Positions 2,579 through 52,141 of a DNA stretch of 64,000 bases are shown here, in pieces. Location: the NCBI GenBank assembly GCA_965655095.1, contig OZ296648.1, positions 30,380,001 to 30,444,000 on the forward strand. Reading direction: 5' to 3'. Position 1 is the first letter of the stretch. Every line of letters begins with the position of its first letter. The position numbers and the translations under genes were made by a program. The notes beneath the pieces are model-generated. The model was not told where the DNA came from. It searched no databases and saw only the letters and a program-made list of their open reading frames with translations. This stretch comes from Haplodiscus bocki. Its lineage: Eukaryota.

Positions 2579-3109
2579 TCAGCAGTTAATCAGGGGTACT
2601 ACATCTTGGAACCCCGAAACTATGTAAACTACTAGCATCAAAAACCTATGTTTCTTTGAAGTTCCACAAAGTTCACAAAGTGATATCAAATCAAAATGTG
2701 AACAGTTGTTGTCGTGATCTTCTTCTAGGCTAACGTTTAGTGTTGTTTGGCCATGGAAGAGACCCGCTTCAGGATGAGGATCATTCTGAGATTCGTCCTC
2801 ATTCGTTCCCTGGTTATTATCTGATGTGTTCCGGGTGGGTTCCGGAGTGGTTCCGGAGTGTCCCGGTAATAGTGGGTTCATCAGAAAGTCATCGAGTCGC
2901 GCGAGAGCACCAAGAATGCGGTTCTCTGTTCGACTGAACTCCTTTGACAGCCTTTTCGTAACTCTTCCCTCAATCTCCTCGGAGACTTGAGTTATGTAGT
3001 CCTCCTGCGATCTAGGAGCGCCTGAGTTTTGTGCCATGTTGCTCCTAGGATTTTTTTCACAAATTTTTTTATTCAACGCTGCCAACTTTCTCTTGTTTCG
3101 AGTGGTCAT
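2579..3109 (-). CDS. gag: Gag N-terminus encoded in the 3' LTR, reading 43 codons into flanking DNA
   Basis: MTTRNKRK...LEEDHD matches the gag start at 16842; residues after 2710 are unrelated flank. Confidence 0.7.
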   Translation of the reverse strand: MTTRNKRKLAALNKKICEKNPRSNMAQNSGAPRSQEDYITQVSEEIEGRVTKRLSKEFSRTENRILGALARLDDFLMNPLLPGHSGTTPEPTRNTSDNNQGTNEDESQNDPHPEAGLFHGQTTLNVSLEEDHDNNCSHFDLISLCELCGTSKKHRFLMLVVYIVSGFQDVVPLINC

Positions 3110-4811
3110 TTTTTGACGAAGGAAAAATAATTGCCAATCAGTAATGCTTTATTAGTTGAGTAGAGGCAAGAAAACAATTTGAGTTTTACAGTGACCAAAT
3201 AATACAATCAAGGAAGTCTTACAGTACTGGATTAATATCGTCAGTAAGTTACTAGCAGGGAAAAATAAAATCATCTGTGTCTGGTATTTTCATTTTCTAT
3301 TTCATCCTATTTATACTTTTTCCTGGCGGGAAAGATAATTGTTTACCCGCGAAGTCAAAGTACAAATAGGGAAAAATGCTTTCAACATCATCACTTCAAA
3401 GTTAAAAATGCCGACGCTGGTGGGAAATAAACAACTTTTCCATCCATCTCTTCCATCATAGGACGCGCTTTTTCCATCTTTCGACAGAAAATGGACGGTC
3501 CCAATCCGTCGGGGATGGACATCAAAGCGTTTATTCCCGCGCCGACATGTTGTTTATTGTATACTCCAAAGATGGAAAGTTCAGGGAATTTCCTTGTTTA
3601 GGAGACTAAAAAACAAAATTACAAAAATAAAAATGAGGAAACTAAAATAAAATACAAAATATATGACTTCATTATAGGAACACATTTAATCATCACCTTC
3701 ACATTCGTATCACCATCAACTAATTAATTAAGCTTTCAGTATTTTGGAAACGAGGAGAAACTAGTATCATTACTAATTTACTCCTCGATCCGCCTAGTAG
3801 CTACTAGTGGTATCCGGAGCAGCTCCGTAGCCACTAGTAGTACAAATTAAAATTCAGTCTGCTACTAGTGGTATCCGGAACAGCTCTGTAGCCACTAGTA
3901 GCATTCGTTTCAATTCAGTCAGCCGTGCTCGAACTAGGAGTGAATACGGAGTAACTCCGTATTCACCATAGCACTGCAGCACGGCATAGTTAAAACATTA
4001 TTAGTGACGTCACCAAACTAGTGAGGACGGAGCACGTACGGAACAAATATTCACTCCGAGAGTCAATTTATTACAAATAAGCCGCTCTATTGCTAGCACT
4101 TTTGAAAGTCAATCACTGCTGTAAACTGCGCTTCTTGTTATTAATTACTGCAATTGTAACAAAAAGGTGGATCTATATTTAATATTTAAAGAACTAAATA
4201 GATTAATATAAAAATAGCACCTTTAAGGATCAATTGCTCTGTGAATACTAGTTTGCTCCGTAACGGTTCCGTCCTAGTTTGGATCAGTTAATGTTTCTGT
4301 GCATTTATTATGGATACGTATTACATACGTATCCGTGTATATGCACAATGGTTTAAAATAGTCTAAAAATACTTAATTATGAGTCTAATTAGTAGTGTTT
4401 GGAGTTTTAAGTTTTTCGTTGGGCGTTAGGATGTCTTTGTCTGTGGAAGGGGCTGGCCACATGCCTCGCAGGTGTGCTGCGACACTCCCCGTTTTTTGAG
4501 AAAAGACATCCCTATACTCAATTTCCTCTTTTGTCACGGAAGGGCGGCGGTGTGGTAGGCGGGCTTCCAGTGGGATAGACTCGCCTGGGTTCATTTGATT
4601 CAAAAGTTTCGTCTGCAGACAAGTCCCAGTATACTCGTCTAGGGTCGTTATCAGACGAGTAGAAAGTGTTATCATCCGTAGCCGTGTGTGTGTTGTGTCC
4701 CCGTCGTCTATCGTGCTTACGTTCATCGGGGTCGTTGAAATCGGAAACAAATCAGACGGCTCCTGTGATTGGCGGCTTTGTTCTCGATCGTGGTGGATGA
4801 CGGCCATCGTT
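2710..4811 (-). repeat. 3' LTR (minimum extent; U3 start lies somewhere right of 4811)
   Basis: Highly similar to 16450-18535. Similarity stops exactly at TG 2710-2711 (CA on minus), the position that precedes the PBS in the other copy. Confidence 0.85.
3801..4012. promoter_or_regulatory. LTR hairpin cluster and CRE-like TGACGTCA palindrome (second copy at about 17527-17738)
   Basis: Two CTACTAGTGG...CCACTAGTAG hairpins (3801-3840, 3860-3903), GTGAATACGGAGT-A-ACTCCGTATTCAC (3940-3966), TGACGTCA (4005-4012). Confidence 0.6.
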
Positions 4812-5116
4812 GCCAACACATTAAAAAGGTTGGGTGGTATATTGAGGTCGTTCAAACTGGGCGGCACTATTGAGTGTTGAGCACCGAATGCATAAGGAAA
4901 AGTCGGCTCATTTGAGTTGGAGTCAAGAGTCACTATCTGTGGCTCCGGAGAAGCAACGGAGGAAATTGTTATAGTCTCTGGGTCCATAGCTTCCGATAAT
5001 TGTGTGGAGTTGAGGATCACCGGAGTGTTGGTTCGAATGGGGCTTCTCTCTGGCGATGATTGTTCGACATAAAAAACGTCTGAGTTTGTTGAGTTCGGGG
5101 AAGGTTTTCGGTACAT
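4385..5116 (-). pseudogene. Extra retrotransposon ORF (Ser/Pro/Thr-rich, basic C-terminus with HxCxxC), overlapping the LTR, frameshifted
   Basis: MYRKPSPNSTNSDVFYVEQ... from ATG 5116. The 3' half is duplicated at 18111-18535; an alternative frame gives KRKLSIGMSFLKKRGVSQHTCEACGQPL. Confidence 0.6.
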
Positions 5117-5494
5117 CGTAGCGAAAAGTGAGAAAAATTTGAAATCTTTGAAAGCTGCTGATATTGACAAAGTGACTTGAAAAAATGATGATCTGAGTGA
5201 AAGTGAGGCGGCACGCGCCGTTAGGCGGGAGACGCTTTGAAGTTCCCGCGGTTTCAGTGGAAGCATTAGAGTCACTGAAGTGGCGGTATAACTGAAGTTG
5301 ATGATTGGTAAACAAAATGAAGGTGAGATTTAGGAATGAGGAAATTCTGAGTTTCCCTCCTGAATGTATCCTTGAAATGTCATGCTGACATCATTGCTGG
5401 CAGACAAATCGGTCATATTAAAGAATCATGATAATTATTGAATAAAATTATAAATCCACCATGTAATAGTTGAAAGTAAGCCACGTCATTCATC

Positions 5495-8400
5495 ATGCCT
5501 GATGAGAAACAGCAAAAGAAGAAGAGTCAAGTGGTTGTGAGGGGCGAAGGTAGTCGTCGTTTGGAGAGTTCCTGAGCAGCACCGGATGTTAGTGTGTCCT
5601 CATTTGATCAGTTCCCCCCTGATCCCCCCATTGTGCGTGAGGCTGTTCGATGAACTGGAAATGTGAGGAGACAAGTGGACGACGAGGGCACGGAAGCTGA
5701 CGACGAGTCAGATATTATCTCTGTGGTCAATTGTTGGTGGGTGTGAGTCAGAGGGAGTCACTTTCGAGGAGGCAGTCGGGAGAGCTGGTCTCATTTCGGA
5801 GACGGAAAACGCGTTGGATACTGCTGGATTACCGATTTGTTAGTTTTCAAGCTTCTCAGAATCCATTAACTTTTTATTGGGATGTCACACTGGCCAGTTG
5901 TTCGATCCGTTAAGTTAGTTATCATGCGCGCATAAATCAGGAGAAGTTGACTCTACCATCGGGTTGTATTTTAGTGTATGATTCTGCCGGAGAACCTGCC
6001 AAACATTCAGTTCATGGCAGTGGAGAGTGTTCTGCTTCGGGCAGTCAATTTGAAGCTGGAGGGGCAACTTCAGGAGAAGACTTTTCCCGGAGAGCTTCCC
6101 GGAGAGCTCCGTTGGCGGCTGTTGCTGAGAGTTGGTATTGCTCTCGCTTAATTATCATGGTAGTGTTTCCAGCGTATGTTCATGATTGTTTTCTGCATTG
6201 TGGGCACTGAAGAGGAGACAGGAGGAGATGGAACCGGGGAGTTGTCCACTGGCGTGGAGAGCGAGAGTGTGGTGCGCAGGAGACGGGCTGTTGTTACTAG
6301 ACGGCTAGTACCGCTCGCTGGGGGGGGCAGCATTGTCTTCCTGCGGCCGACTCAATCAAGAATCGGAGTCGCCAGCTGCTAGAGAAAGCGTTTGATGAGG
6401 GTATACCTTGTTTCAAATGAGTAGTCTTCTAGTATTACTCCTCGTTTGCTCCATGTTTATAATCCATATTTTCCTGTTTTAGATCAGTACAGTGGAGATC
6501 CTTGATCGTCGGTGATTCGGGCCACAGGGCATCAGTTGGTGTCTCTCTGCCGTTCCGTAGTGGAGGAGGAGAAAAATCAGCTCCTGGGTCCATTGATGAC
6601 CAGTTAGTACTCCGGAACTGTTCCGTATGACTCCGTAATTCTGTGGTTTCACCATCTGTTATTTTGTTTGCAGAGTTTGATGAGGTGTTGGATAGACTCA
6701 GTCAGGGGCCATCTACGTCGCAGCAACAACAACAACGTGTGACTGACACAACAGACACTAGTGGAGAGGACACTGATGTTGAGCAGCCTCGGAGACGGGT
6801 GCGCTCCAGACGCACCTTCAAGATCAAGAAGGGGTACGCTGTCGGCGAGCTTGCTCAGTTCTTCGTCACCGGGCCCACTGATGCTGCAAACAGGCTGAAC
6901 GAGTTCTACTGCAGAGTGTGTCGGAAGGATGTGTCGGTTGTCACTCACGGGGGATACGAGGTCATCCGGCACTTTCAAGGACACCGCCATTTTGCTCGCG
7001 ACCAACGGCTTCGCCTCGAGACACCTGGCTGGCGGGTATTGGATTTCGACGGCAACCCGCTCCCTGAGGACGAGCTTGAGAGACAGCGGGAGAGGATCAT
7101 GCTTGCGCCCCTTGTAGTCCGGGACCGTGAATATCCTTTTCGGGAGGATCTAGTTCCGGATGCATCCGGAAACGTGGATCCGCAGCTGCCAATGTTGGCG
7201 AAAGTCTCGTGCCTCATCGATGCTCTTCAGTTGGGTGGGAGTTACGAGCTTGTGGAAAAACTGTGGGAGCGATTCGTGCTGACAGCCAGCCAAATCAATG
7301 TGGCTGTTGCCTGGTCCCGCGATGAGGTTTTGGTTAGTTCCGTATTGTCTCCGGATTCCACATGGACTAATTGCTTTCAATTCGGGTTTTTATTTGTTCC
7401 TGTTATAGTCCATTCTGTTGAACGGGATGCTGCCCCGGACTTTGACACGTGTTGTTGACTGGGTTAGGGCACACCGGCAGTTTAGTGTGGAGTTCGCGAC
7501 TCAGGGCTCTGCAACCTGGGTTTACATCAGGACGCGGAAGGCGGGGGAGTTCGTGCGAGTTGCTGTAGCCATAATTGACCGATATTTTGGTGATGCAAAC
7601 AGTGAGTTGGCAATTTTGGGAAAGATTTTGAGCACGGTGGGCAGCGGGCCATCACTGGTTTCTCTTTCTGGAGGCTCTCACACATTGGTTGAGTGCAACA
7701 AGGAGTACCTTGGCAGTGGCTACACGAAAACCCTTGTAGATTACCCGATTTTCGATGCAAGACTGTTAAAGCGATGCCTTCAAAAAACTGCATCAGTCGT
7801 CTTTGGGACTTTGGACCCTTTTTCAATGACTGAGTTCATTGTAGCGCGATTGAAGGGGGCGGAACATCGAGACTGGATGCAGTCGAGGCAGTCTCTACGC
7901 AGGGCTATTGAAACAGGTGATCTCTCTCTTCCCGGTCTTTTGGATGTTGTCAGTAACATCATTGGTGTATGGCCGCTGATCGTTTCATATTTAAAGGAAA
8001 CTGGGAAGAAGGACAGCGGAGATAGCCTTGTGGTATGGTTTTTTCTTCGAATTACTTTGTCATATAATGCCCATATTCACTTGTGTTTTCTTGTTTAGAA
8101 GAAAGAGATAGATGGGTACTTTTACGTTGAACAGTTGGGCACAATGAAGTTCCGTCTATTCCATCTTATCCTTGAAATGTGTTAGGATTCACGTTCCTTG
8201 TCATATTTGCGTAGTTTTTCTGATTTTACGCGCGCATGTTTGTATGGGGGTTCTAGGAGTCAGCGTGTAGCGTTCCTGGTGGCATCCTCATTTTGAGTTA
8301 GTCAGGGATTTCTAGGAGTCAACTTGGAGTGTTCCTAGTGGCATCCTCATTTTGAGTTAGTCAGGGATTTCTGAAAGTCAACTTGGAGTGTCCCTAGTGG

Positions 8401-9863
8401 CATCCTCAGTTCGAGTTGGTACTCAGGGGTATTCTTCTGTTTCAGACAACAACAATTTCATCGCAGAGCAGTCTCCTGGAAGTGGGTACGGATATCGGGC
8501 GTATGGCGAGCTGTCCCACTTTGTGTTTTGCATCTTGCAAAAGATCAAGAAGAGTGAGTCACTTCCTTTAGTTGAGAAATGGGAAGACTACATGCTGCCG
8601 AACCATTCTTCATTCGCCGCTAATGATGAGGAGCGTTTTCTCGTGGGGACCCGCATTAACGCAGCTCTAGAGAAGATGTCAAGCTCCTACTTGAGGAAGG
8701 AATTCCGGAGCAACGCCCGCCGCTTCCTTGAGGAATTCTGCAGCACCATTCTGTCAACCATGGCCACCAGACCAAAACTGGGTCAGGGAGTTAGCTGTTT
8801 TTGCCCTGAAATAATTCTTGGAGGCGATGACCATTCCGCCTTTTTCTTGCACGGACAGTTACTGGATGGGCTTGTCGAGTGTGGTTGGGAGAAGGGATCC
8901 AACGTTGAGGCCTGCAAAGCCGAGTTCCAGTCTTTTGTTCCGGGAGCAGCGCCAGCTGGAACGTCATTCCACGAGGAGGCCTCCTGATGTAGGGAACATC
9001 CTGGCCTACTTCGCTCACCAGACTGGATTTCAGAGTAGCAGACATCTGTTTCAGGTAATTTGTCGCACTAGTTTAGGATAGCCTTCATTGTAAGCACTAA
9101 TCATCAGTATTTGTTACAGGTATTTCAAATGACAACTTTGTTTCTTCGGGATTCGGTTGAAGAATTGCCCGCATTCATTGTAAACTTGAATGGAATTGCT
9201 TTGAGTCGCCGGCTAGTGGAGAAGTCAATTGCTTGCATCCAGGATTTTGTTCGGTCACCACGGTTTACCCAGCGCGATTTCTTCAGCGATAATGGGATCA
9301 ATTTGCTTGTCTCTGCCATCAATGCTGCTGGTTCGATGCGCGACTAACCAACTTGTGAGCCTTGGGCGAATGTTCTTCCTGATGGCTATGAGGCTACTTT
9401 AGTGGATCCAAAGAAAGCATACGATGTTGTGGTTGTTAGGCGGAAGGAGGCACGGGATACATCAGAGAGATGGTTCAGGGTGCGCAGTGTGGAGTCGTCT
9501 GAAGTTGGGGAGCCATCTTGTCGGTCTGGAGTGCGAATATCCAATGTTGTTGAGGTTGGACAGGTTGAATACTTGTCTGGGTCTGTACCTGCTTGGTATC
9601 AGCCTTGTGGTAGTACTACAGTATCTCCTGGAAGCCCTGGAAAAATAAAGCGGAAGAGAAGTGTGACACCTGCTCCCGCTGCTAGCCCCAAACGGTTGTT
9701 TGAATTTGACGATGAGTCAATCATTTTGCCAAAGGGAAGAGGGGTGTATTTTGAAGACCCCAATTTTGAGTGCGCTTTGAAGAGCCAAGAAAAAACTGCT
9801 GCATTTCGTCGGAGTGGTCGCAGTCGCCGTGCTGCACCAATCTTCCAGTCTAGTCCACGATAA
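5495..9863 (+). pseudogene. Spliced BED-finger / hAT-transposase-derived gene, apparently lacking DDE residues
   Basis: Phase-compatible GT-AG introns at 7333-7408, 8033-8098, 8181-8445 and 9055-9119, plus less certain ones before 6674. BED-like FYCRVC...IRHFQGHRH; hAT-like blocks FSVEF...VYIRT and EFRSNARRFLEEFCSTIL...GVSCFCP. Stops at 5573, 5651 and 9345 and a frameshift near 8938. Confidence 0.75.
8251..8428. repeat. Three 59-bp tandem units inside an intron of the hAT-like gene
   Basis: TTCTAGGAGTC-like starts at 8251, 8310 and 8369; each unit contains GTGGCATCCTCA. Confidence 0.9.
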
Positions 9864-10305: not shown

Positions 10306-13300
10306 TCAGTATCTGTAGTCGTCATTGCAATTTGGCCTTGGGTTGTGGCGTAGATCATATTTTGAGCTGCGGGGGTTGGTAGGCGTCGGGTCAATTTGCT
10401 CTACGCTATTGTCCGCATCAGGCTGCATGTGGTGATCCGTATCCGTTCCGTCGTCTATTTCAACTGCTTGGGGGAGAATATCTGAGGAGTCCACCTGTAT
10501 CGTTCCTGGAGTACTCCTCGTTTCATTAGCTGCTTCCCCCAATCGTACTCTGACTTCGGGTGAATTGGCTGATACCAGATTGTCGCGATCACTGTCGAAT
10601 ATTGGCTTGTCGTATTCACACTCCCATGCTCTGGCGTATAAATCATCATGCTTAATGATGACTTCCGGGTCTGGTTGCCATTCGCGTGGTGTGACTGGTG
10701 TGTCTGGTATTGGTTGGCGGGGTGTGAATTGACGTAGCCTCATTCTGTGCAGGATTTGCGTTTTATTGGTGCCAATTTTGCGTACCACATAATTTTTGTT
10801 GGGTAACACTTTCTCAAAAATGTATGGCTCGATCCACCGAAAATCTGTAAAGGGAATTTTACTTCCCTGGTGGTCTGCTTTCGGCTGTAGAATATAAACA
10901 TAATCGGATTGTTTAAGTTTTGAGGCGTTGGCTTTTTTAACAAAATACGCTTTGTATTTGATATAGGCTTGCATAGCATTTCTTCTGACATCTTGGAAAA
11001 TCATTTCCGTCTGCTCAAGCACGTCTTGCGCGATTTCTGAATCTGGCGATGGAATTTTCTGTGGACGAGTACCCATTTTTAAATCAAGTATATTGTAAGG
11101 GATGCGGCCGTGAAACACTCTGCTCGGTTCACAGCCAATACTAGAATGATTAGAGGTGTTGTAATTAAGGACCGCAATGCTGATGTATTTATGCCACAAT
11201 GAACTTCGCTCGCCTGTTTCAACCTTTAATGACTGCTTGATTGACGCGTAAGATCGCTCAAGTGGCCCAATTGTTTGAGCGTGCTTGGTGGTGGCGTTCT
11301 CTAGAGTAATACCAAGGACGCCGGCCACTTCTTTAATTACATGTGACGTAAACGCTGTACCTTTATCTGAGATAAATGTTGTTGGTAAGTAGGCCTGTTT
11401 AGTCATGATGTTAATTATCACTTTGCCGATTGTTGTGGCGTCTTGATTTGATGTCGGGTATGCATATAGATAGCGGTAAAAAACATCCATGGCTGTCACA
11501 ATATTCTCATAGTCGCCAGATGGTGGTAATCCCGGTACTAAATCAATTTGCATAGCGTCTTCGGGCGAAGTAATATGCTCATTTGGGTTCTGCAGGGGGG
11601 ACAGGTTGGTTGGGGATTAATCCGTAATTCTCGAATGCATTTCTCACAAGACATGACCCACTTCCTGATCAGTTGAGCCATTTTCGGGTAATAAAATTTC
11701 TCTCTGTAGGCAATTATCGTCTTGGTAATTCCAGGATGTTTCCCAAAGTCTCCGTGGAGGCTCCGGAGTACTTCGTTAACTAACTGGTTCGGTATGAGAA
11801 TTTAGTCGTGTTTGACGCTACCAGTGTCTCCGTAGTATTTCCGGAGTAGGAGTCCATCCTTGAGGATAATGCGACCCTCATTGGCTTTGTAATGTTTGAA
11901 TCGTCTGTCTGCTGTCAATAACACATCGTCATGTGGTTGGTCAACTATTTTGAGTTTCAAGTTCTTCAATACCAGATCGGCATCTTGCTCTACTCGTATT
12001 CTCGAATTTGCTTTTATTCCATGAAGGGAATACGCCGTAGTGTTTCCGTCGATCTTTGTGAATTCCTTTATATTTGGCTTCATTGAGGATGGTTCCTGGT
12101 TGACTACCCATTCTGCTGCTTTTTCCCGAGATTGTTCTCTCCTTTGTAGGATCTGTTCTTCGGTTTCATCGTAATCATCTGTGTGCGTGAAGAAAAACTG
12201 TTCTTCGTCTGCAACATCTGAAGAGGATGTTGTGACCTCAATGGGTGTTGTTTGTACATCTTCCCTGATTTTGAGGCGGATCCTTTCCGTGTTTTTCAAT
12301 TCTAATCGTGAAAGAAAATCAGCTGCTGCGTTTACTGAACCAGCGGTATGTGCTATTTTAAAGTTGAACTGCAGCACATAATCACATGCGTTCCACAAGG
12401 ATGGTGGAGTGGCCTTGGTCTGGAAGAATCGTGTGACAGATTTGTTGTCGGTCAAGACAATTGTTGGTTTCGTTGTTTCCCACATGATGTGTGCAAACTC
12501 GAAGAATGCCATGTAAAAAGCCAGGAACTCTTTTGAGTAAATCGACATCTTCAGTTGTGCAGGCGAAAAATTTTTTGACCCAAACGCAACAGGTGCGTAA
12601 GTCTTCCTTTTTGATTGGATATTTTGATCTGGGTTATCTTCAATCATGAGAGCATACCCTGCGCTTCTGAAGCTTGCATCCGTCATTAGGACAAGCTGCT
12701 TTCCAGGAATGGGTTGTTTTAATGCTAATTCGCAAGCATCACTCAGTGCTTCATTTACCGAATCAAAGGTTTCTTTTAGTTCTGATGTGATGTTGATTGG
12801 GACTTCCGTTCTCAAGAGTTTGTAGAATGGATTGAGTTTTTCGGTCATTCTGGGAATATAATTTCTGTAATAATTTACGAAGCCCAGATACCGCTGCAAA
12901 GCGTTTTTCGATTTGGAGAATCTCAGTTTATATAAAACATTTTGAATTTTGTGAGCTTGTGGTGATACTCCCTCGGATGAAAAGTTTCTTCCGAGGAATT
13001 CAACTCGCCTGACTCCAAAAAGGCGCTTTTCAATTGTCAGTTTCAATCCTGCATTGCTAATGCACTGGAAGACTGCCCGAATGTTCCGGGTAAGGTCCGT
13101 AGCATTGTTGGCTGCGATTCCAATATCGTCCACATTGAGCACATTGGTCTGCTTTAACAACTGGGTCCAAGTACTCGCGCATGAAGCTTGAAAAGGCAGA
13201 CACAGATCTGCTGAGACCTTGTGCAAGTCGTTTGTAGGCAAAAGTTCTGCTAGCAAAAATGAAAGCAAGCATCTCTACTGACCGTTGGTCCGCCATCTGC

Positions 13301-15192
13301 AAACAGTGATAAGCTTGGGAGCAGTCGAGCTTGCAGAATAGGGATTTCCCTGCCAGCTGTTGTGCTGCGTCTGACAAAGTGCTGACTGGGTGGTTATTAT
13401 TAGTGTAATCATCCGCTATCGGTGTGTTGATTTTCCTGAGATCCACAAGAAGACGTAATTTTCCGTTGGGTTTCCTCTGTGCAAATATGGGACTTGCGTA
13501 TTTTGAGAACGGTAACACGGTGATGATCCCGTTTTTGTGCATAAGGGCAACGAATAAATCTTCTTTCAGGTGAATCGGCATTGGTAGGCTTTGACTGTAA
13601 ACAGCTTTGATATCCTTGGGTGTGAGTCTCACCTTGAATTCCGTGTTCATCCCAATGTCCATTCTGCGTCTAGCAAATATGTCGTGATATTCAACTAGAA
13701 TGTCTTCAACTGCATGTATTTCTTTTTCATTGAGCAGTGTGTCTGTCCAATCAAATCGTTTTAAGAATTCGATTCTTGATTCATTATCATCTTTCGGATT
13801 CATTTTTTTTGTTGTAATTCACGCAGTTCTTTTAGAATTCGTGTTTGAATTGGGGTGTGCTCCTCTGTGTTGCCAGGATTTTCGGGTGTCGGAAACCAAA
13901 AGGTGTTGGTTTGCTGATTTGGTTTATTTCTTCTGAATAGCTCAGTGAGACATGTAATCAGATCTGGGTCACCTTCAGGGATCATACTCAGGACTGCCAT
14001 GTCTACCGGTTTGATAAACTTGGATTGCTCCGGAGTGACTACGGAGAATTCGCCAATTTGTGTGTTCTTGTTGTTTGTCTAAGGTGATTCCGTGGTGTTG
14101 GTGACTCTGACCGCTATCTTTCTGTCAATTATTGTTGACATTGAATGGGATATTAGGAGACTCGCGGTTTCTGTGATTTTTTCTTATGGCGTTACAGTCC
14201 CTGTTGTATTCTATTCTGATGTGTGGTCCACAAATGCTGTAATTGTTTTTGTCGTCATTTGCGGTATTGTTATATTGTCGTGGAGGAGAACGGCTTGAGG
14301 TTTCACACTTGTTTGACTCAATGCACTTTTGACTTGCATTGTCAAATATGGGAAGTGGATGAGACCATGAGTGGTATCGATGACCACACTGTTATGTCTC
14401 ATGAAGTGCAAACCAATAATTGGTCCTGTCATATTCTTCATCACGACAAAATGTTCTGCAAAAACGTGATCCCCAATGTCAAATTTGAGTGTGGCTGTTG
14501 CTGTTGGCTTCTCTAACTTGAAAGCCGTTTGTTACTTGAAATTGAAAGTTAGGAGGATCATCGATTTTGAGGATATTAGACGGAGATTGTTGTTGGATTA
14601 TATCAAGCTCTTTTTGAGCTATTGCACTCACATAGGCTCTTGAGTCAACAAGGGCATCTATTGTTAAGCCATTCTCGAAATCCAGAGGGACATACGACAT
14701 TTCTTTCTTTCGTTTGAGAACAATTGTGGAGGATAGTGGCATGTACAGTTCATTGGTACAATCATCCCTCACTAGTCCTTCTTCAATTTGCGAAATTGTT
14801 ATTGGAGGCGGGGATATATTACTATCTCCGCTGTCACAGGTTGTCATATCAGTCTCGTATCTCTGAATTTCTGAGCTGGACTTCTTGGAGTCATTGAGGC
14901 TCGGTACTAGCGGGTTGCTGGTTTGGTTTCCTAGGAGTGGTTCCGTACTGGATACGGATACTTGGGATGAGGTTTCTTTAATGGGCGACGTTTGTGATTC
15001 TACATCACTGCTCTGTTTAGATTCGGGCATGTGGGTATTTTTGTGAGTTTCATTATTGCAAGTTTTATAAATATTAGGTACATGTGTCTCCAGGGGTTGC
15101 TGCCAGACAACCGCTGGAATTGGTGAAAGTTTTAACTGAGTTGTCTCCGGTCTGTCAATCGCAACTCCGGAGTGAAGACGTGGCGTTGTTAG
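10306..15192 (-). pseudogene. pol: Gypsy pol (protease, RT, RNase H, integrase), multiple frameshifts
   Basis: PR ALVDSRA; RT LRLLVDLRKIN, KLDCSQAYH, QGL, VDD; RNase H TDAS...EFLA...TDNK...ADFLSR; IN IDLV...SDKG...ER (10306-11553). Confidence 0.95.
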
Positions 15193-15200
15193 TTCAAATT
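15145..15200 (-). promoter_or_regulatory. Probable -1 ribosomal frameshift signal at the gag/pol junction
   Basis: Gag ends AAT TTG AAC TAA (one change from slippery T TTA AAC). The -1 frame is open into the pol ORF at 15030, and a CTCCGG...CCGGAG stem follows. Confidence 0.6.
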
Positions 15201-16842
15201 TTGGGCTGCAGCCTGGGGAGCTTCATTAGAGTCACTTTGGTTGGCTCTTTCTGGGACCTGATTCTGTCTTTCCGGTCTTCTGTGCCGTGGAGGCAGTCGA
15301 TTGGCTGCATTGGCTCCAAAATAACATTTCTCTGTGGAGTGGTTTGTTTTTCCACATGTCTCACAGGGTGGGTAAACAGTTTTTGGCTTTCTTTCAGCTT
15401 TATTACTGTTTTTGTTGTTATTGTTGTTTTTGACATTACCGTTCGGGTTAGAGGTATTGGCGGCACTGTTTTTGTTTCCGGGATTACGTTGATCATTTTC
15501 AGTTTGTTCTAGCTGTTTTTTCAACAAGCGACACTGATTTCTGTGATGTCCGGGCTTTTTACAGTGGTGGCACTTTAGTTTGGGTCTGTCGGCGCTCGTG
15601 TTTGTGAGTTGTTGGCTCACATTGTTTATCGGTAGCTCGTCAGGGGTTTCCAAACCATTCAGCTGTAATTCCCGTTCCAGGTGTGCTAAGATTTTTTCAT
15701 AGGTGCCATTCTCCAGATGGGCCTGATTTATTGATTTTTCCAGGTGTGGTGGCATTTTGGGGTATATGAACTGTTCAATGATGGCATGGGCAGCTTTCCG
15801 AATGCGTTTTTGGCCAGTTTTTGGAGTTCGCCGAGAAAATCGACTAGCTTTTGGTTGGCCGGGTTAAAGACGAGTTTTTGGAATTTATGTTTTGCTGTTG
15901 CCATTGATTGGGGTTTTACGTACTTCCTTCGGAAGACTGCTAGAATCTTTCCCAGATTCTCTCGGGTTGGGCCACTAATGTTTTTAAAGGTTTGTAGGGC
16001 ATCTGCCCTCATGAGAGAATGGAGATAGTTGATTCGGTCATCCTCGGTCAACTGGTTATGGATTTTGAGACTCGTCTGAAAAAGGTCTTCAAAAAGCTCA
16101 AATTTCTCAGTTTTCCCGTCAAACGTGGGCATTGTTGAGGTTAGTGACTTTGGCAGTTTGGAAATTCTGTTGATATTTTTGTGAAAATTCGCAGAATTGT
16201 TGTTATTTGCCAACTGCTGAAGGGCCAAAAAAATTTAGTCTGCCTCAATCGTCGCACGGGTGTTTTCGCAGCGAAATTGCGGTTGACTGGTGAAGCGGTT
16301 CTTTTTCTGCTTTCCTGAAGATGTGCTAGGGGAGCATTAAGTGACTTCTTCGTGGATTCCTGTCATGTCGTGGCAATTACCAATTTGTTCTGTAGCTCCT
16401 GTTACCATGTCGTGGCGATTCCGATTGCTTCCTGTAGCTCTTGTCACCATGTCGTGATCTTCTTCCAGGCTAACGTTTCGTGTTGTTTGGCCATGGAAGA
16501 GACCCGCTTCAGGATGAGGATCATTCTGGGAACCGTCCTCATTCGTTCCCTGGTTATTATGTGATGTGTTCCGGGTGGGCTCCGGAGTGGTTCCGGAGTG
16601 TCCCGGTAATAGTGGGTTCATCAGAAAGTCATCGAGTAGCGCGAGAGCACCAAGAATGCGGTTCTCTGTTCGACTGAACTCCTTTGACAGCCTTTTCGTA
16701 ACTCTTCCCTCAATCTCCTCGGAGACTTGAGTTATGTAGTCCTCCTAGGAGCGCCTGAGTTTTGTGCCATGTTGCTCCTAGGATTTTCTTCACAATTTTC
16801 TTTATTCAACGCTGCCGACTTTCTCTTGTTTCGAGTGGTCAT
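15189..16842 (-). pseudogene. gag: Gypsy gag, disrupted
   Basis: MPTFDGKTEKFELFEDLF capsid-like region; knuckles CHHCKKPGHHRNQC and CETCGKTNHSTEKC; 7-nt deletion near 16746 and a stop at 16337. Confidence 0.9.
16354..16456 (-). promoter_or_regulatory. Primer binding site, triplicated together with the LTR-end motif
   Basis: CACGACA|TGGTGACAAGAG, CACGACA|TGGTAACAGGAG and CACGACA|TGACAGGAA; junctions at 16450, 16408 and 16366. Confidence 0.75.
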
Positions 16843-18535
16843 TTTTTTGACGAAGGAAAAATAATTGCCAATCATTAATACTTTATTAGTTGAGTTGAGG
16901 CAAGAAAACAATCTGATTTTTACAGTGACTAAATAATACAATTAAGGAAGTTTTACAGTACTGGATTATTGTCATCAGTAAGTTACTAGCAGGGAAAATT
17001 AAAATCAACTGTGTCTGTTATTTTCATTTCTCCTACTTATACCTTTTCCTGGCGGGAAACATAATTGTTTACCCGCCGAGTCAAAGTACAAATAGGGAAA
17101 AATACTTTCAATATCATCACTTCAAAGTTAAAAACGACGACTCTGGCGGGAAATAAACAGCTTTTCCATCCATCTCTTCCATCATAGGACGCGCCTTTTC
17201 CATCTTTCGACAGAAAATGGACGGTCCCAATCCGTCGATGATGGACATCAAAGCGTTTATTCCCGCGCCGACATGTTGTTTATTGTATACTCCAAAGATG
17301 GAAAGTTCAGGGAATTTCCTTGTTTAGGAGAGTAAAAAACAAAATTACAAAAATAAAAATTAGGAAACTAAAATAAAATACAAAATACATGACTTCATTA
17401 TAGGAATACATTTAATCATCACCTTCACATTCGTATCACCATCATCTAATTAATTAAGCTTTCAGTATTTTGGAAATGAGGAGAAACTAGTATCATTACT
17501 AATTTACTCCTTGTTCCGCCTAGTAGCTACTAGTGGTATCCAGAGCAGCTCCGTAGCCACTAGTAGTACAAATTAAAATTCAGTCTGCTACTAGTGGTAT
17601 CCGGAACAGCTCCGTAGCCACTAGTAGCACTCGTTTCAATTCAGTCAGCTGTGCTCGAACTAGGAGTGAGTACGGAGTGACTCCGTATTCACCATAGCAC
17701 TGCAGCACGCCATAGTTAAAATAATATTAGTGACGTCACCAAACTAGTGAGGACGGAACACGTACGGAACAAATATTCACTCCGAGAGTCAATTTAATAC
17801 AAATAAGCCGCTCTAGTGCTAGCACTTTCGAAAGTCAATCACTCCTGTAAACTGCAGTTATTATTATTAATTACTGCAATTGTACCAAAAAGGTGGATCT
17901 ATTTTTAATTTTTAAAAAACTGAATAGGTTAATATAAAAGTAGCACCTTTAAGGATCAATTGCTCTGTGAATACTAGTTTGCTCCGTAACGGTTCCGTCC
18001 TAGTTTGGATCAGTTACTGTTTCTGTGCATTTATTATGGATACGTACTACATACGTATCCGTGTATATGCACAAGGGTTTAAAATAGTCTAAAAATACTT
18101 AGTTATGAGTCTAATTAGTAGTGTTTGGAGTTTTAAGTCTTTCGTTGGGCGTTAAGATGTCTTTGTCTGTGGAAGGGGCTGGCCACAAGCCTCGCAGGTG
18201 TGCTGCGACACTCCCCGTTTTTTGAGAAAAGACATCCCTATACTCAATTTCCTCTTTTGTCGCGGAAGGGCGGCGGTGTGGTAGGCGGGCTTCCAGTGGG
18301 ATAGACTCGCCTGGGTTCATTTGATTCAAAAGTTTCGTCTGCAGACAAGTCCCAGTATACTCGTCTAGGGTCGTTATCAGACGAGTAGAAAGTGTTATCA
18401 TCCGTAGTCGTGTGTGTTGTGTCCCCGTCGTCTATCGTGCTTACGTTCATCGGGGTCGTTGAAATCGGAAACAAATCAGACGGCTCCTGTGATTGGCGGC
18501 TTTGTTCTCGATCGTGTTGGATGACGGCCATCGTT
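16450..18535 (-). repeat. 5' LTR, truncated at 18535
   Basis: Copy of 2710-4811. The break at 18535 has no TG start and abuts an unrelated repeat. Confidence 0.85.
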
Positions 18536-21620: not shown

Positions 21621-24229
21621 CTACTGCAAGTTGCCCCCCCACCGAAACTGATGTGTTTTGTCTAGCATATACTCATGTGTTCTACCTATCGGTTTCTGTC
21701 GGCAGATCAGCTGCGGATTCAATGTCTACCGTTTTCCATCTTGGAAGGACCGAAAACGGTGTAAATCCATACTTTCTCCCAAATCCGTTCCGCTTCAGTT
21801 TTTCTTTTGCTATAACTCTCTGTAAATGAGAGTATTCGTGATCGCTTATAGCAGAATGGTTTTCGGATTGAAAGCATCGGAACAGATGTTTTCCGATGTG
21901 GTGCAGATTCAGCTCAATACAAGTCTGTTTAAAAAATTTACTGCATTACAGGGAGCACATGTGATAATTGCAGGTTTCCGGCAGAAGCTTACCAGTGTTT
22001 TTTAGTCTCCTAGTATGTATTTTCACTTCTGAGCTTCAGTCAGACTCTAGCACCTGTCTACTTTGCGTTATCATGTCAATTCTGCACTTTTGGTTAATGA
22101 TGGTGGGTGACTACTAATTTATCATTTGCTCACCGACGTTGGGTTTCACACACTACATAGCATTTTATATAATAAATAGTCGCGTTCATACCGGGGGGAG
22201 AGGGAAGTAACATGATATAGATGCTTATGTACATTTCTGCGTTGTTTGGCTACAGAAATTGTTTTAAGATCCTAATTACTATGGTTGGCTTCATACAATA
22301 ATTCATTGACGTACTTTTAGGGATATGTAGATGACACCTTCATGACACCTCCGATTTAAGGAATGGGACAAAACTGCCGATTTCTATATTGAGACAAATA
22401 TTTTTTATCATTTTAAAAAAAATAAGGTAATAATGTCTTTTGAAACACACGCGGAAATTAGAGTTACATGACGGCACCACTATAATTTACCTTTTTTCAT
22501 AATATCAGTATTTTGCGAGTAGTTTCAAATGTCTTTTCAATTTCAGAACCTTTGAGTTTTCGGACTTTCATTCTTAACTCTACGTTGTAAACGTGTAATT
22601 GGAACACCACTAGCAGACGTGGTAATGCTGTAACTTTTTCAACACACGGTTTTGTACATATGTTCAAAGTAATTTTTTTCGAGTTTAATTTTGGCAAAGT
22701 TTTGAAGTTGTGGATGAACAGATCCTACATAGTGTAGGGATTCACTTGGTTCTTCGCGGGCCAATCCCAAGACTATGTCAGTTTTTTCACCGGCCAATCA
22801 CTAATCCAGAAAAGGTACTGTGAGGGTAAATCTCAGCTGGGAAACAAAAGTTACATGTAGCCTATGCCAGCCTACTGCGAATTCACGTTTATCTACGGAA
22901 CGACCAGGGGGACGAAGAAGCGTCCATCCCCGTTGCTACTAGTTTCACTATATTCAAAGTTGGACTGCAGTTGAAAACTTCTGTAATTTCTATCTCGCTG
23001 TAATTTCTATCTCGCTCGTCTTTGTTTAAACAAAATTTGTATCTCAGTGTTTTTTCAAACACCCGAGTATTATATAGTTTCATACTTCCACAAATTTTTC
23101 CTGCTTTCTCTTTTCAGATTTTTGGGATGATTAAAACTCGTTGACTTCAATCCTATTGTTTTGAGGAGTGGTCTTATACTCAAGTTTTCTGTTTTCTACA
23201 CCACCTTCTGGGTTTCGCATATTTTACAACGAATTTAACAGCTGTTTTCTCGAGGTTGAGAAAATGAAGAACCACTTGAGATGGAAGAAAAACTCTTGAA
23301 ACAAGTAGTACGGTTCAACCAGAGTTCAGTGATATCCGACAGTTTTCGAAGACGGGCAACTGTTTTGATGAGCCAGCAAGCTAGAAGTGTCGATTTCGGA
23401 GCAAAAACTAAAACAACGGAAACCCTCGACGTGATGGGAGCTACTGTAAAAACCTACTGGAAAAAGTTCCAAATACGTTTCGGAATTTGGGATCTACATA
23501 ATATACACACTGTGCTTTTTTTGTGACTGGATCTCACGCTCGAATTGTTGTCCATATTAAGCCAGCACCCGAAAGAACTGGACTCTACAGTCCCTCCCCA
23601 GGAGATCAGATTACTCCTCTTGCTCGGAAGATCCTACGCACAACTGGTATCAAAGTATAATCACTTCAAACGAAAAGTGATTGTAACTCCTCCACTGATT
23701 TGAAGGTAATTCAAGCCTTTATCTATGCTCACGTGAAATTGAATGCTTCACGACTCTGAAGGAACTTGTGTTCCACTGAAGCCAGTGTCGAAACGAATTG
23801 ACTTTTATATATCAGATTCTTGACTCAATTAAAAAGCATCATTTGGTTTAGTTTGGGATTATATTCAAATTACAAATGAAGAAACTGAAGTTCAATTTTA
23901 CCAAATTTTGGAACAAGTGGAGTCATAGGTTTTTTGATGGTGGAATCAGTTAAATTGATCTACTTCAATTTACGAGTTTGGTTTCCTCTAAGCTCGTTTT
24001 TGAGCACGACTCTCTTCGTTGATGCAAAAGAAATGACTGACATCTTTCCCAAAGTTTCATTTTTGTGGTGTGTCCGGAACCGCACAACACTAACTAATGT
24101 CATCCTTGGGGTACATACACTAGCTTTCACTCAAACGGTGTTGTGTATGACTGGAGACTTTTTTGAATCTTTTTTTCGAAAGTTTACTGCGCTGCAAAAT
24201 GTTAAGAGTAAATTCCTCCAGGCCTCTCC

Positions 24230-27200
24230 CATGCGCGGTGGCCCTGGGACTTTCTCAGCGCGCCATTTCACAGGAACTTTTTTCGTGCGCCACTTTGCTG
24301 AACGTTCTCTTCATGCCTTATTTTGCTGGAGCTTTTCCCCTGCGCTTTTCGGCAGAGATTTTTCCCGTGCGGTTTTTTGCACGGGTATTTCCATGAACGC
24401 GTCCGAGTGAGCTTCACCCGAGCGCCCTTGCGCGGAGGCTTTGCCGTGCGCTCTTTTGCAGGGTTGTTTTCCGTGCGCTCTTTCCCGGGACTTTTTCCTT
24501 GAGCTATTTTACAGCGCCTGTCGCCGTGCGATTTTTCGCAGGGGTTGTTTCCGTGCGTTCTTTCGCAGGGTCTTTTTCTGTGCGTTTTTTGCAGCTGGTT
24601 CCTTCCGTGCACTTTTTCACAAGGGTTTCTTCGGTGTGGCCTTTGTGAGTGGAACTTTTCCGTGCGCTCTTACGCAAAAATCTCTCCGTGCGATTTCTTG
24701 CAGGTGCTTTATTGTGCGCTGTTTTGTAAAGGCTTTTTTCTGTGCACTCTTCTGCGGGGGTTTTTCGGCGTACACTTTCGCAAAGATTTTTCGATAGCCT
24801 TTTCCCGGCGTCTCCCCCGAGCGCTTTAGTGGAAGGGTTTTTCTCGTGCGATCCCACGCAAGGTTTCTTCCGCGCAGTCTTTTGCAGGAGCTTTTTCAAT
24901 CCACTTTTTCGCGGGGGCTTCTTCGTACGCTTATTTCGGGGACTTCATTGGTGCGTTCTTCGGTGAGGGCTTTTACCCGGTGCTCTTCCTCAGAGGCTTT
25001 TTACGGGCTCTCTTCCGCACCGGCTTCCTCCGTGAAGGTTTTTCCACGGGTTTTCCCGTGCGTTTCATCGCAGGGGGTTTTCTTGTATTCTTTTTCGTTG
25101 GGGCTATTTCCGTGGGCTCTTTTGCAGAGGCACCTTTTCCGTTCATTCTTCCGCAAGAGCTTTTTGCATGCGCTTTTCCCAATTCTTTTTCCCGTGCATT
25201 TTTGCAGGGGCTTTTTCCTTGCGCCTTTTTGCAGTGCTGCTTCCTTGCCCTCTTCCGCAGGGGCCTCTTTGTCGTTTTTTTCGGGGACTTCTTCTCTGCG
25301 CTCTTCCGCAAGAGCTTTCACAAAACACTTTTCTTCAAGAGTTCTTGCCGTGCTCTTTTCCGCTGGGCTTTTTTCGTGCGCTCCTTCGCAGTGGTTTTTC
25401 CATGCGCCTCATCGAAGAAGTTTCTTCTGTGCGCTTTCTCGCGGGAGAGACCCATCCGCGCGCGTTTTGCAAGATTTTTTTTCCTTCGCTCTTTTGCGGA
25501 GGCTTTATCCGTGCACGCTTTCACAGTTGCTTTTTTCGAGCACTTTTTCGCAAAGATTTTTCTGATTTGCTCTTTTGTAGGGGTTTTTTCATGCAGTCTT
25601 TTGCGGGGGCGCTTTCTCGGTGCCCCCTTTCGCAAGTTCCTTTCCCTGCCCTCTTTTATGGGGCTCTTTCGTGTGCTTTTTCCCGGGGAATTCATCCGTG
25701 CGTTCTGTCGCGAGAGCTTACTCCTAGCACTTTTCTTCATGGTTTTCGCAGAGCGCTGCTCCGCAAGGTCTTCAAACCTGAGCTCTTTCGTAGCAGCTTT
25801 TTCATGCAATCTTTTGCAGAGGTGTTTTCTGTGAGTCCCTTCGCGGGGGCTCCTTCCGGGGGCCTTTCATGGGAGTTTTTTCCTTGCAATAAATCGCAGA
25901 GGCTTCAGACGTGCACTCTTCCGCAGTGGCTTTATCTGTGCACTCTTTCGCAGCGGTTTCTACCGTGCGGTCTTTTGCATTGCTAAATTCTGTGCGCTCT
26001 TTTCTGCAAAACAATTTCCGTGCACTCTTTCGCAAAAATTTTCCTCTGCGTTTTTCAAGGGTCCTCCCTCCGAGCGCTCTAGCGCCAGGGTTTTTCTCGT
26101 GCGCTCTTACGCAAGAATTTTCTCCGCCTTCTCTCGCTTAGGTTTTTTCTGCGCGTTTTTTCGTGGGGTTTTTCTCGTCTGCTTTTTGCAGGGCTTTTTT
26201 TCGTGCGCTTTTTTTGGCAGTGGTTCCATCAGTGCACTATTTCACGATGGGTTTCCGAGAGCTCTCTCTCAGGAAAATTTTACGAGCTCCCTTCCTGAGG
26301 GTTTTTTCGTGCACATTTCTCACGGGCTTTTTCCGAGCGTTCTATTGCAGGGGTCTTTTTGTTATTCTCTTCCGTACTGGCTGTTATCGTGCACTCTTAC
26401 ACAGGAGCTTTTCCCTGCGCTCTTCCGGACTTGCTTTTTGCGTGCACTTTTTAGCAGTTGCTTTTCCTCAGTGTTCTTTGCAGGCGCTATTCCGTGCGCC
26501 TCTCGCAGTCTTCTGTCCCTGCCCTCTTTCGCTGCGATTTCTCTGCATGTTTTTTTTTACCTGGGACTTCATCCGTCACCTTCTCCGTGAGGACTTTCAG
26601 TAAACTCTCTTTGTCAGGGGTTTTTTACGGGAACTCTCCTGCAGGGGCTTCTTCCGTGCACCGTTTCGCAGGGGTTCGATCTATACGCTGTTTCTCAACG
26701 TGGTCTCTCGCTTGCGTTGATCCGCAAGAGTTTTTCACTGCACCTTTCAGCTGGAGATTTATCTTTGCGCTATTTCGCGGAAAGCTTTTTTGGTGCGGTG
26801 TTTCACAGGAGTTTTTTTCCGTGCGCTCTTACGCAAAACTTTTTGGGTGAATATTTCATGGGTTTTCATTTCGTGCGCTTTTTTGCAAGGTATTTTTCCG
26901 TGCGCTTTTTGGCACCGACTTTTTCAAGCACTTTTTCGAAACGGTTTCTTTTTTGCGCTCCTTGGTGGGGGGTTTTAACCGTGCATTTTTTTTGCAAGGG
27001 TTTTTTGTGTGCGCTCTTTTTAAAGGGTCGTTTACCCATGCACTGTCTTGCGAGGGCTTTTTGCGTGAACTCGTTCTCAGTGGCTTTCCGTGCGCTTTTG
27101 TTGGGGTCTCTCACCAAGCGTTCTAGTGCGAAGGCTCCTCTCGTGCACGCTTAGGTAGGGCTTTTCCCACGCGCTCTCTTATAGGGTCCTTTTCTGTGCG

Positions 27201-27850
27201 GTCTTTCGCGGTGGCTTTTCCCGTGCGATCTTTCTGGCAGGGTTTTCCCGTGTTCCTTTTTGCGGGGGTTTTTTCTGTTCGTGTTTTGCCGGCGACTTCG
27301 TCAGTGCACTTCTTTTGCGGTGTGTTTTTCGAAGCGCTTCTCTACAGGGGATTCTTACGTGCGCTCTTCCGTAGGGGCTCCTTCAGTGAACATTTTTGCA
27401 CAAACTTCCACCGTGCGTTCTGTCGCAGGGGTTTTTCTTTTATTCTTTTCCACAGGCAATATTTCCGTGCGCTCTTTTGCACAGACGTTTTTTCCCTGCA
27501 TTCTTCCGCAAGAATTTTTCTCTGCACTCTTCCGTAGTTACTTTTCGTATGCGCTTTTTCGCTGCTGCTTTTCGCGTGCGCTCTTTTGCGGCGGTTGTTC
27601 CCGTGCGTCTTTAGCCAGAAGTGTTTCTGTGCGCTTTGTGTCTTGAGACTGTTTCCATGCACCGTTTTGCCGTGGTTTTCTCCGTGGGCTTTTCTGTAGG
27701 GGTTTCTTGTGCGAGCTCTTTCTTGTGGGCATTTTCCGTGCGCTCATTCGCAGCGGCGTTTTCCCTGCGCTTCTTTGAAGAAGTTTTTCCTGGGCGCCAT
27801 TCGGGAGGGCTTTTTTTCGTGTTCGCTTTTGCAAACTGTTCTTCATGCAC
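24230..27850. repeat. Degenerate ~25-bp satellite/minisatellite (consensus like TTTTCCGTGCGCTCTTTTGCAGGGG)
   Basis: More than 100 imperfect units with strong T/C strand skew; generates spurious F-rich and K/R-rich ORFs. Confidence 0.9.
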
Positions 27851-29459
27851 AAGGTGGATGTTATTTACCTGAGGAGCAGCAGTTCAAGAGTTTTTCAATC
27901 GTTTTTTATAGAAATTGTTCGAATAATATTGAGCGCGAATGCTCTTTTTACGGTCCAACTTTATTCGGTATCACTTGATAGTTTCTAAAATCTGCTCGTT
28001 TAGGGCTAGAGATCAACAAAACTTAGGACGATTTGGGCGGCGAAACGTCATTTGTTGGATTATAATTGATCGTCGCTTCGTCTTAGCCCGAATCAAAGTG
28101 TCTAAATTTATCTTTCGAGGTTTCGTCGCCAATGGAAAGCTTTCTTTGTCTGGGAATTAAGTTTGATGTCGTTTCTTCAACAAAGTAAATGATTTCTTCC
28201 AATTCACATTCCGAAAAGTGTCGTTCATGCATGTCAGGTTCAGGAGGGCTTGGAATCTTCGTAAAGACTTGCGTTTCAACTTGATGGTTGCTTCGTTCAA
28301 TGTCATCGTCATAGTTCGAAAACGATGGAACATTGCTACCACGTGAACTTGGTAGAGCTCATTTTAGAGTAGATGAAATTGCTTTAGCTTCTAAGGTTTC
28401 CTCTCCGGTTTGTTTTCCCCGGTCATTGTCTTCCAGGATCTCTCTATGCACTTGCCAGTCTCCTATTTCGTAGTGGTAGAAAAAAAACAATTAAGGCCAT
28501 CGTTTTGTATGAAACGCATGCCGGTGAAGGCACTCAAAAATAATTTGTTGTTTGGAATCGTTTGCCGTAGTTTTTTTGAAGAGTCAAAACTTATATTGCT
28601 TGTCGTCATGTGGTGACCACTTGGGAGAACACTTTTGTAGACAACATGCTTCAACAAAGTTTTTGCGTATAAACATAGGCCTTTTGCTTACATGTTTTTT
28701 TTGTTTATCATAAACTATGGAATACATCTTCGTTTTGAGTCCAACGATTTCTTAGATAACTTGTTTTTTTCTGCCGTCTCATCTTCAAAATTGAATGTGA
28801 ACAGCTTGTCTTTGTCACAAAGAAGAAGACTGATGTTCAGATTGTTAGAAAAGTTGAAATCTAATTATAGCAGGGAGTCGTTTACTAACTTCTCATGGAA
28901 ATCTTTTCCCTCGACCTCACACGAGAGCAACTCAAGGTCAGAACACAATAGTGAACAGTCGAATGTCTTCATCATTGACTGGAAACAAGACAGCGTTTTA
29001 GGTAGAATGACATTGTTACGAGAACCCTACTTTAGGCTTCGGAACGTTTTGTTGTTGCTTCTACAGCATTTAGCTCGGACACCTAATGATTATGGACTCA
29101 AAATATATGGGTGGAAAAGACGCCAGTTCTTTTCTGTTATTCTTGGGGCTAAAAGTATCAATTTTGACATTTTATGTTTACCCTGTAAAGGAGTTCAGAA
29201 AAACGGAATTGGCAAGGTCGAGTATGCAGGCGCTAACGAGAATTGGCGTATCCAAGTAAACTTTTCCTCTGCGACTCGTTTCTGCTGGCAGGTTTTCGTC
29301 GAAGCTGATGAATGTTTTTCGGAAGCGTATTAGACTTTCCAGGGACGGCTTTTTTTGTCTTGAATAGTTTTGCGTTGACCCTGTTTCTTTTGTTTTAAAG
29401 AGTTTTGCCGCAACACGATTTGTTCATGAGCATCAAAAATGAATCCTCCAAGCTGTTCT

Positions 29460-51200: not shown

Positions 51201-51575
51201 AAGTCATTTTTGGTTTAAAAAAGTTCTGAGCAAAAACACTGTGATCAATTTTGACATTGCTGTACAGATTTTCAAAAACCTGGAGCACTGCGACCAATGC
51301 GCTCAGAGGAAAACAATTCAACGACAAGAAAAAGAGGGCTGTCGAAAATCAAAGAAAAATTCGGAAAAAATATTTATTTGCTCTAAGCTTTCATAAAAAA
51401 ATCCAAAAGGCTCCGCTTTACTTCGCTTCGCCTAAATACCCCTCCAGCACAAACAGGAACGGAAGGAAGCAGCTACCGGCAAAGTACCGGAGAAATTGCG
51501 AAAATTTGATTGACCTTGAACTGCATCGACCAAATTCAACTGTTCGGAGGACTGAACTTGGTTGCTTGTTCTCCC

Positions 51576-52101: not shown

Positions 52102-52141
52102 GACTTCATATTTAATTTATTGATTAATAAAAATTACTTAC

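Follow-up and report, generated by a model that had tools for sequence, protein, structure and literature searches.

We are fairly confident that the element described here, from the genome of Haplodiscus bocki, belongs to the gypsy-like LTR retrotransposons and has a gag frame that starts 400 nt within the LTR, then continues in frame through the LTR end and a tRNA-Leu primer binding site (PBS) into the capsid; that translation of Gag likely begins inside the LTR; and that, in a sister family, the LTR end likely crept further into gag by in-frame steps. Gag normally begins downstream of the PBS. The layout found here breaks the annotation rule that LTRs are non-coding and that gag follows the PBS; an annotator following that rule would miss or miscall between a quarter and a third of Gag.

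The window, that is the whole stretch of 64,000 nt analysed here, contains a pair of 2.1-kb direct repeats (2710-4811 and 16450-18535, 95% identical) and between them, on the minus strand, an element with the order gag, RT, RNase H, integrase. The preliminary description had taken 2710-4811 for the LTR, which misplaced its left boundary by 327 nt: the true 3' LTR (minus strand) spans 2710-4484 (1775 bp, TGTCGCA...CACGACA, with target site duplications, TSDs, at these ends in other copies) and is 94.5% identical to the 5' LTR at 16450-18210 (1761 bp, minus strand). The sequence beyond the LTRs, 4485-4811 and 18211-18535 (327 and 325 nt), consists of the polypurine tract (PPT) and internal sequence. 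The upstream LTR of the window is a junction with the stump of a second, truncated element, whose PPT and 3' internal remnant occupy 18211-18535 (minus strand), the LTR being common to both, and no target duplication belongs to the window copy itself. Two 61-bp tandem units lie in U3 (3800-3924), their copy number differing between elements.

Taken alone, the window pair could be a tandem or segmental duplication, as its repeat exceeds the LTR by 327 nt, with no TG at the left end and no TSD. The genome-wide copies, however, leave this reading a negligible probability. For family A1, the family of the window, ten paired elements of about 13.7 kb each were fetched for their boundaries; their repeats begin TGTCGCA (window 4484) after a purine tract and finish CACGACA, and a 5-bp target duplication adjoining these ends is perfect in eight of the ten, the remaining two having truncated 5' LTRs. 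Among 20 unpaired (solo) candidates, the start was findable in 16 and a perfect 5-bp duplication was present in nine; two proved to be 3' LTRs with a purine tract, and the others had a near duplication match or none. The LTR-end motif has 120 exact matches in the genome against none for the reversed control, a recurrence that is not chance, and in 34 of the 120 it is followed by TGGTGACA. Of the first 30 matches, 11 continue into the PBS and 19 into unrelated flanks. Variable breakpoints, as left by a duplication, were sought, and the copies were found to share a single breakpoint: among 30 loci, the 22 copies not followed by a PBS all switch to unrelated flanks right after CACGAC(A), the query for these loci having ended at CACGAC(A), so that earlier breaks are under-sampled. 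Contigs of four sequencing runs of one study, perhaps the assembly's own source and not independent of it, showed loose ends and mixed flanks at 4484 among the matches listed. With fixed TG...CA ends, TSDs, PPT, PBS and solo copies throughout the genome, and with only 18211-18535 as an extra, the tandem remnant, the duplication reading is ruled out by the TSDs of the paired elements and the solo copies, and the repeat is an LTR, as the preliminary description had held. Separately, tandem elements with common LTRs were seen at G000:C7:39.361-39.373 Mb, on C128 and at C10:34.09-34.11 Mb, including a 5.45-kb internally deleted unit that is itself repeated in tandem.

The LTR end had also been placed correctly, at a CA just before a TGG PBS. 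CACGACA stands at 2710 and at 16450, and the latter copy passes directly into TGGTGAC. The PBS (16438-16449, minus strand) follows the LTR end without a spacer and is complementary to the 3' end of the host tRNA-Leu(CAG), with one mismatch in the window copy; across the family it pairs with the tRNA-Leu end over 11-14 nt. A pattern for the PBS-complementary tRNA 3' end gave 893 matches in the genome (884+9) versus none for the reversed control, and ARAGORN called tRNA-Leu(CAG) in two of 15 matched loci, the remaining loci including a 424-bp tandem array. This array, of 424-bp period, is long (G000:C1:161.07-161.15 Mb) and carries tRNA-Leu-like 3' ends; at its edge, ARAGORN called no tRNA in six loci. 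At the element's opposite end, a PPT (4485-4496, minus strand) precedes the 3' LTR, so that PBS and PPT stand where they do in Ty3/gypsy elements; family B has a C/G-rich stretch where a plain purine tract is expected before the 3' LTR (L147-L165).

The direct repeat includes both gag ATGs (3109 and 16842, minus strand), and from the ATG at 3109 to the LTR end there are 400 nt (133 codons + 1), in agreement with the figure of about 133 LTR-borne codons given earlier. The claim that gag is read through the LTR end and the PBS held for other copies of the family and failed for the 5' copy in the window, in which the frame closes after 36 codons; the peptide EDHD-MVT, which had been described as continuous with the gag ATG, sits in another frame there, and gag (15189-16842, minus strand, from the LTR-borne ATG to the stop; open in other copies) has further breaks. 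The window's own copy is dead, and read-through was therefore judged on relatives. In the 3' LTR of the window, the LTR-borne 5' end of gag (2710-3109, minus strand) is open for all 133 codons, and the frame runs another 43 codons into flanking DNA, up to a stop in the host flank at 2579 (2579-3109). Among 60 loci examined, the ATG was found in 59, and in 49 of these it lies 400 nt from the LTR end. A natural ORF of 539 aa (P0001) leads from the LTR ATG across the junction into the capsid and the zinc knuckles, 17 of the 30 best full-length Gag matches in the genome are without a stop, and a long ORF of 528-583 codons begins at the LTR ATG in all 20 fetched copies, which were taken from the best-match list and chosen for being open. 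At the other end of gag, TTTAAAC, a classic -1 frameshift heptamer, stands just before the stop in 38 of 41 copies (window 15189-15200), and pol begins in the -1 frame.

Is this frame kept as protein? On 22 open A1 copies (leaving out one whose repeat frame was garbled), dN/dS was 0.156 (0.105-0.221) for codons 2-133 versus 0.127 for internal gag, falling to 0.027 for codons 36-80 and rising to 0.50, a weak constraint, for codons 81-133. Picked by DNA, 20 3' or solo LTRs gave 0.30 (0.19-0.48); these values come from non-independent pairs and, for most sets, from copies selected by protein search. The other five frames hold 3-13 stops per 131 codons. Over 21 pairs of equal nucleotide identity (87-88%), we counted 206 gaps, mostly of 1-2 nt, in the 400 nt upstream of the ATG versus six, confined to two copies, in the first 400 coding nt. 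Judged by these patterns of substitution, the LTR-borne 133 codons are under purifying selection as protein, which supports their translation. The frame might instead be conserved as an RNA or DNA signal or through recent common descent, and synonymous divergence does fall in the last third of U5 (dS 0.22 vs 0.61), as overlapping cis signals would give. We give this reading very little credence: change is biased to third positions, dN/dS lies at 0.03-0.3 in four sets, one of them picked by DNA, indels are nearly absent from the LTR-borne codons and all other frames have stops, so that it appears largely refuted.

In an AlphaFold2 model (65-row alignment, mean pLDDT 62), the LTR-borne part of Gag forms one helix, residues 34-77, the remainder being disordered. 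This predicted 44-residue helix coincides with the strongest selection and is likely a matrix-like or assembly segment; a heptad scan revealed no clear coiled-coil register. The capsid follows downstream, with PNMA2, Arc and dArc as best folds (probability 0.99-1.0, best E only 2.4e-3); the zf-CCHC match is weak, and Atlas clusters of Retrotrans_gag/Ty3_capsid score 0.93. Since the capsid fold lies entirely downstream of the junction, the main capsid precursor might start at the junction ATG or later, the LTR ATG yielding only a minor N-extended form; the glyco-Gag of murine leukaemia virus is such an N-extended Gag. The junction Met is present in nearly all copies, and repeated, and gene callers begin 11 of 147 database proteins at MVTG. 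This Met is forced by the CA|TGG signals, which makes a second, conventional start at the PBS possible but deprives the conservation of the Met of much of its weight. Moreover, the context of the upstream LTR ATG is strong, ATGs are almost absent from the 100 nt before it, and codons 36-80 are as constrained as the capsid. Two forms of this kind thus appear improbable to us, and we retain the LTR ATG as the likely start of Gag. In some A1 copies, additional ATGs do occur downstream of the TATA motif and ahead of that of gag, with 2.2 per copy at -200 to -100 and 0.05 per copy in the last 100 nt.

By structure, the element fits Ty3/gypsy. Its LTRs are direct, with TG...CA ends and a TSD within the 4-6 bp of that group, its Gag has a capsid fold and CCHC knuckles, and its pol has the order RT-RH-IN on the minus strand (RVT_1, RT_RNaseH, rve), with RT and RNase H in pieces at 11802-13818 and integrase (rve) at 10306-11616. 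The Ty1/copia arrangement, integrase before an RVT_2-type RT, is absent from the element. The start of pol (14211-15222, minus strand), the expected protease region, gave no Pfam match on the broken pieces of the window copy. The best PDB sequence matches of the RT were caulimovirus, foamy virus and Ty3 RT, with similar scores. In BEL/Pao elements, a Pao-type Gag (DUF1759) goes with a Peptidase_A17 region; here, a DUF1759 match just over the cutoff was found and no Peptidase_A17 match, RT_RNaseH models matching instead.

Is the LTR-borne start of gag common to related elements? In family A2 (66% to A1), the ATG lies 388 nt inside the LTR, TSDs are present in seven of ten pairs and dN/dS is 0.108; in one further-reaching A2 pair, without TSD, the repeat extends 589 nt past the ATG. 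In family B (39% to A1), the ATG lies 565-670 nt inside the LTR, dN/dS is 0.205 on nine copies and TSDs are perfect in six of ten pairs, with one mismatch in one more. The N-termini of families A and B do not align (E>1), and that of family B gave weak alignments to two distant Gags. At the junction, CA|TGGTGACAGG translates as H/D-M-V-T-G in A1, A2 and B, and of the 161 Gag-like proteins fetched, a set with redundancy, 147 have a loose MVTG-type motif; a distant Gag pair (P0228/P0288) is without it. Motif-bearing Gags of other assemblies are at most 57% like anything in this genome and have the motif at residues 114-195. One protein of another assembly, P0279, tracks the 570-aa Gag P0190 for 195 residues and ends two residues past H-D, seemingly as a lone LTR would. 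With P0261 and P0202 as queries, the own genome yielded no families other than B and A2. As read from these sequences, the gag-in-LTR layout appears to be clade-wide.

The end of the LTR appears to have moved. In the A1 loci read, the unit of LTR end and PBS stands in tandem one to four times, 42 nt apart in 18 of 34 spacings; in the window, a second in-frame unit (16396-16414, minus strand) lies 42 nt downstream of the first. The array is in frame in 17 of 31 distinct DNA-picked copies, the others showing mostly (AG)n slippage. In family B, where the ends were readable in 17 of 20 pairs, the LTR ends 565 nt (nine pairs), 598 nt (six), 640 nt (one) or 670 nt (one) from the ATG, and all steps between these ends are multiples of three. 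In 16 of the 17 pairs, the LTR ends at the first unit in which CA and TGG are both intact; in the exception, the first PBS base is changed in the 5' copy. Six of the eight longer LTRs carry a damaged unit (8-10 of 11 PBS letters) at exactly 565, the other two having less than 8/11 there, and 8/11 matches also occur by chance. In the 670 type, the PBS at 565 is nearly intact and CA is changed to CG.

We propose that the LTR end is set wherever the tRNA primes beside a CA usable by the integrase. Since the unit of end and PBS also encodes protein, its tandem duplications would come in multiples of three; once the first unit had lost its CA or PBS in an active lineage, the next would be used, and each such switch would add 11, 25 or 35 codons to the LTR. 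Duplication in frame, decay of the first unit and use of the next is likely the simplest reading of the family B ends. The tree of family B is unrooted, and the direction of creep is taken from the decayed units alone. Recombination or deletion among tandem units, or shortening of the LTR, could produce variable ends without forward creep: tandem units recombine easily, and the 598 type occurs in several branches of the unrooted tree, one beside 565-type copies. We consider this unlikely, as the longer LTRs carry damaged units at exactly the end of the short type, which shortening would have to repair, and one longer LTR has a near-intact PBS with CG for CA. Forward creep would cover the later growth of the LTR and not the first capture of the ATG, with its first 129-188 codons, which appears to be older: an old remnant of LTR end and PBS, sought inside three A1 LTRs, was not found beyond chance level. 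The four end states, dated by position within one genome, offer a directly testable mechanism for the movement of an LTR boundary and illustrate one way in which a terminal repeat may swallow coding sequence.

How could such an LTR be transcribed and copied? A TATA-type motif lies at -181 to -201 from the ATG in 20 of 22 A1 copies, and AATAAA or ATTAAA at -40 to -44 in 21 of 22; in the window, the candidate TATA box TATAAATAG is at 3307-3315 and the candidate poly(A) signal AATAAA at 3148-3153, some 41-44 nt before the ATG (both minus strand, functions putative). TATAAATAG recurs in families A2 and B, and B has ATTAAA at -11/-12. With these conserved motifs, transcription would start and end upstream of or near the ATG; as both precede it, R probably ends near the ATG and the coding stretch would be U5. 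A splice-acceptor reading of the pyrimidine tract before the ATG was rejected, the AG not being kept. In the standard scheme, as outlined in the available part of PMC7175516, U5 and R are the first parts copied when reverse transcription starts from the PBS, so that the LTR-borne codons would enter both LTRs. The coding 400 nt would thus be copied, as U5, into an unusually long minus-strand strong-stop DNA, of more than 400-670 nt across the families, and the signals for integrase and primer would have to double as codons.

Reading frames also cross the other LTR end. A sense accessory ORF (4385-5329, minus strand; its frame shifted near its end in the window copy) runs over the PPT into the first part of the 3' LTR; in all three families, most copies have its end 19-33 codons into U3, and with a dN/dS of 0.45, 0.13 and 0.28 on six, five and four open copies of the three families it is under purifying selection. 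It has a basic KRK cluster in A1 and A2, and the first LTR bases encode V-S-Q in all three families. In each of the three families, we further observed an antisense multi-ORF gene that takes up some 4.5 kb from integrase to the 3' LTR (also L167, L165; window 6631-9863, plus strand) with intron-like gaps and a C2H2/BED-like finger. Atlas leads (0.81-0.85) point weakly to hAT/ZBED-type proteins, and no Pfam match to this gene passes the cutoff. Three 59-bp tandem units (8238-8417) lie inside its region.

The overlap of gag and LTR in Ty1 is about a dozen codons. According to the available part of PMC4974528, the PBS of Ty1 of Saccharomyces cerevisiae is inside the GAG ORF, at RNA nt 94-104, and Ty1 gag thus starts in LTR-derived sequence. 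The element described here shares this start and the PBS within gag, here by sequence and selection. It differs from Ty1, with its short overlap, in having 129-223 LTR-borne codons with a selected helix, and also in superfamily, in its tRNA-Leu primer, in its tandem in-frame PBS units and in its moving LTR end. In Ty3, as given in the same part of that source (PMC4974528), the PBS segment adjoins a 5' UTR made of R and U5. With Ty3/gypsy elements (Ty3; capsid relatives PNMA2 and Arc), ours has in common gag-pol(RT-RH-IN), TG...CA LTRs, a 5-bp TSD, PBS, PPT and capsid fold; unlike in Ty3, nearly all of its U5 would be coding, and reading frames run across its LTR at either end. Among retroviruses, HIV nef, MMTV sag and foamy bet are ORFs that lie in U3 or extend into it, and the accessory ORF resembles them in crossing the PPT into U3. 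To our knowledge, these lie at the U3 end and none is a U5-borne Gag N-terminus. An exact-phrase search of open-access full text, which is weak evidence, found no long U5-borne Gag or duplicated PBS in an animal gypsy element, and no precedent was seen in the available parts of PMC5408680, PMC3601003, PMC7175516, PMC12853362, PMC4202319 and PMC4402516. The principle is known from Ty1; for so long an overlap, a domain under selection, PBS units in tandem and an LTR end that moves, we found no precedent in this weak comparison.

The 3' and solo LTR loci L031-L060 provide a further observation: in 18 of 22 lone LTR ends, the 133 codons stay open and the frame continues into host DNA, with fusion ORFs of 135-212 aa. 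Solo LTRs thereby yield many spurious 'genes' of 135-200 aa, with matches ending at residue 132-135; if solo LTRs are expressed, they would be a large source of new fusion proteins. More tentatively, and as a picture that we think possible but would not expect to hold in full, these elements may form a clade of animal gypsy-like elements in which the LTR has become a coding cassette at both ends, growing by a PBS ratchet. Each solo LTR would then be a promoter with an ATG and 130-220 selected, stop-free codons that seeds host fusion ORFs and might also make a Gag N-terminal fragment that restrains the family, comparable to Ty1 p22, which comes from the other end of Gag.

Further repeats were noted in the rest of the window. 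A related LTR fragment in the opposite orientation (18929 to about 19900, plus strand) begins TGTCGCAG and is without the gag part; 23000-28000 holds diverged 26-27-bp tandem repeats with stop-poor frames; 51575-52102 is a 528-bp imperfect, MITE-like palindrome; and at 53573-57118, direct repeats of 400 bp, 3.1 kb apart, stand around a copia-type RT fragment (RVT_2, 55071-55724).
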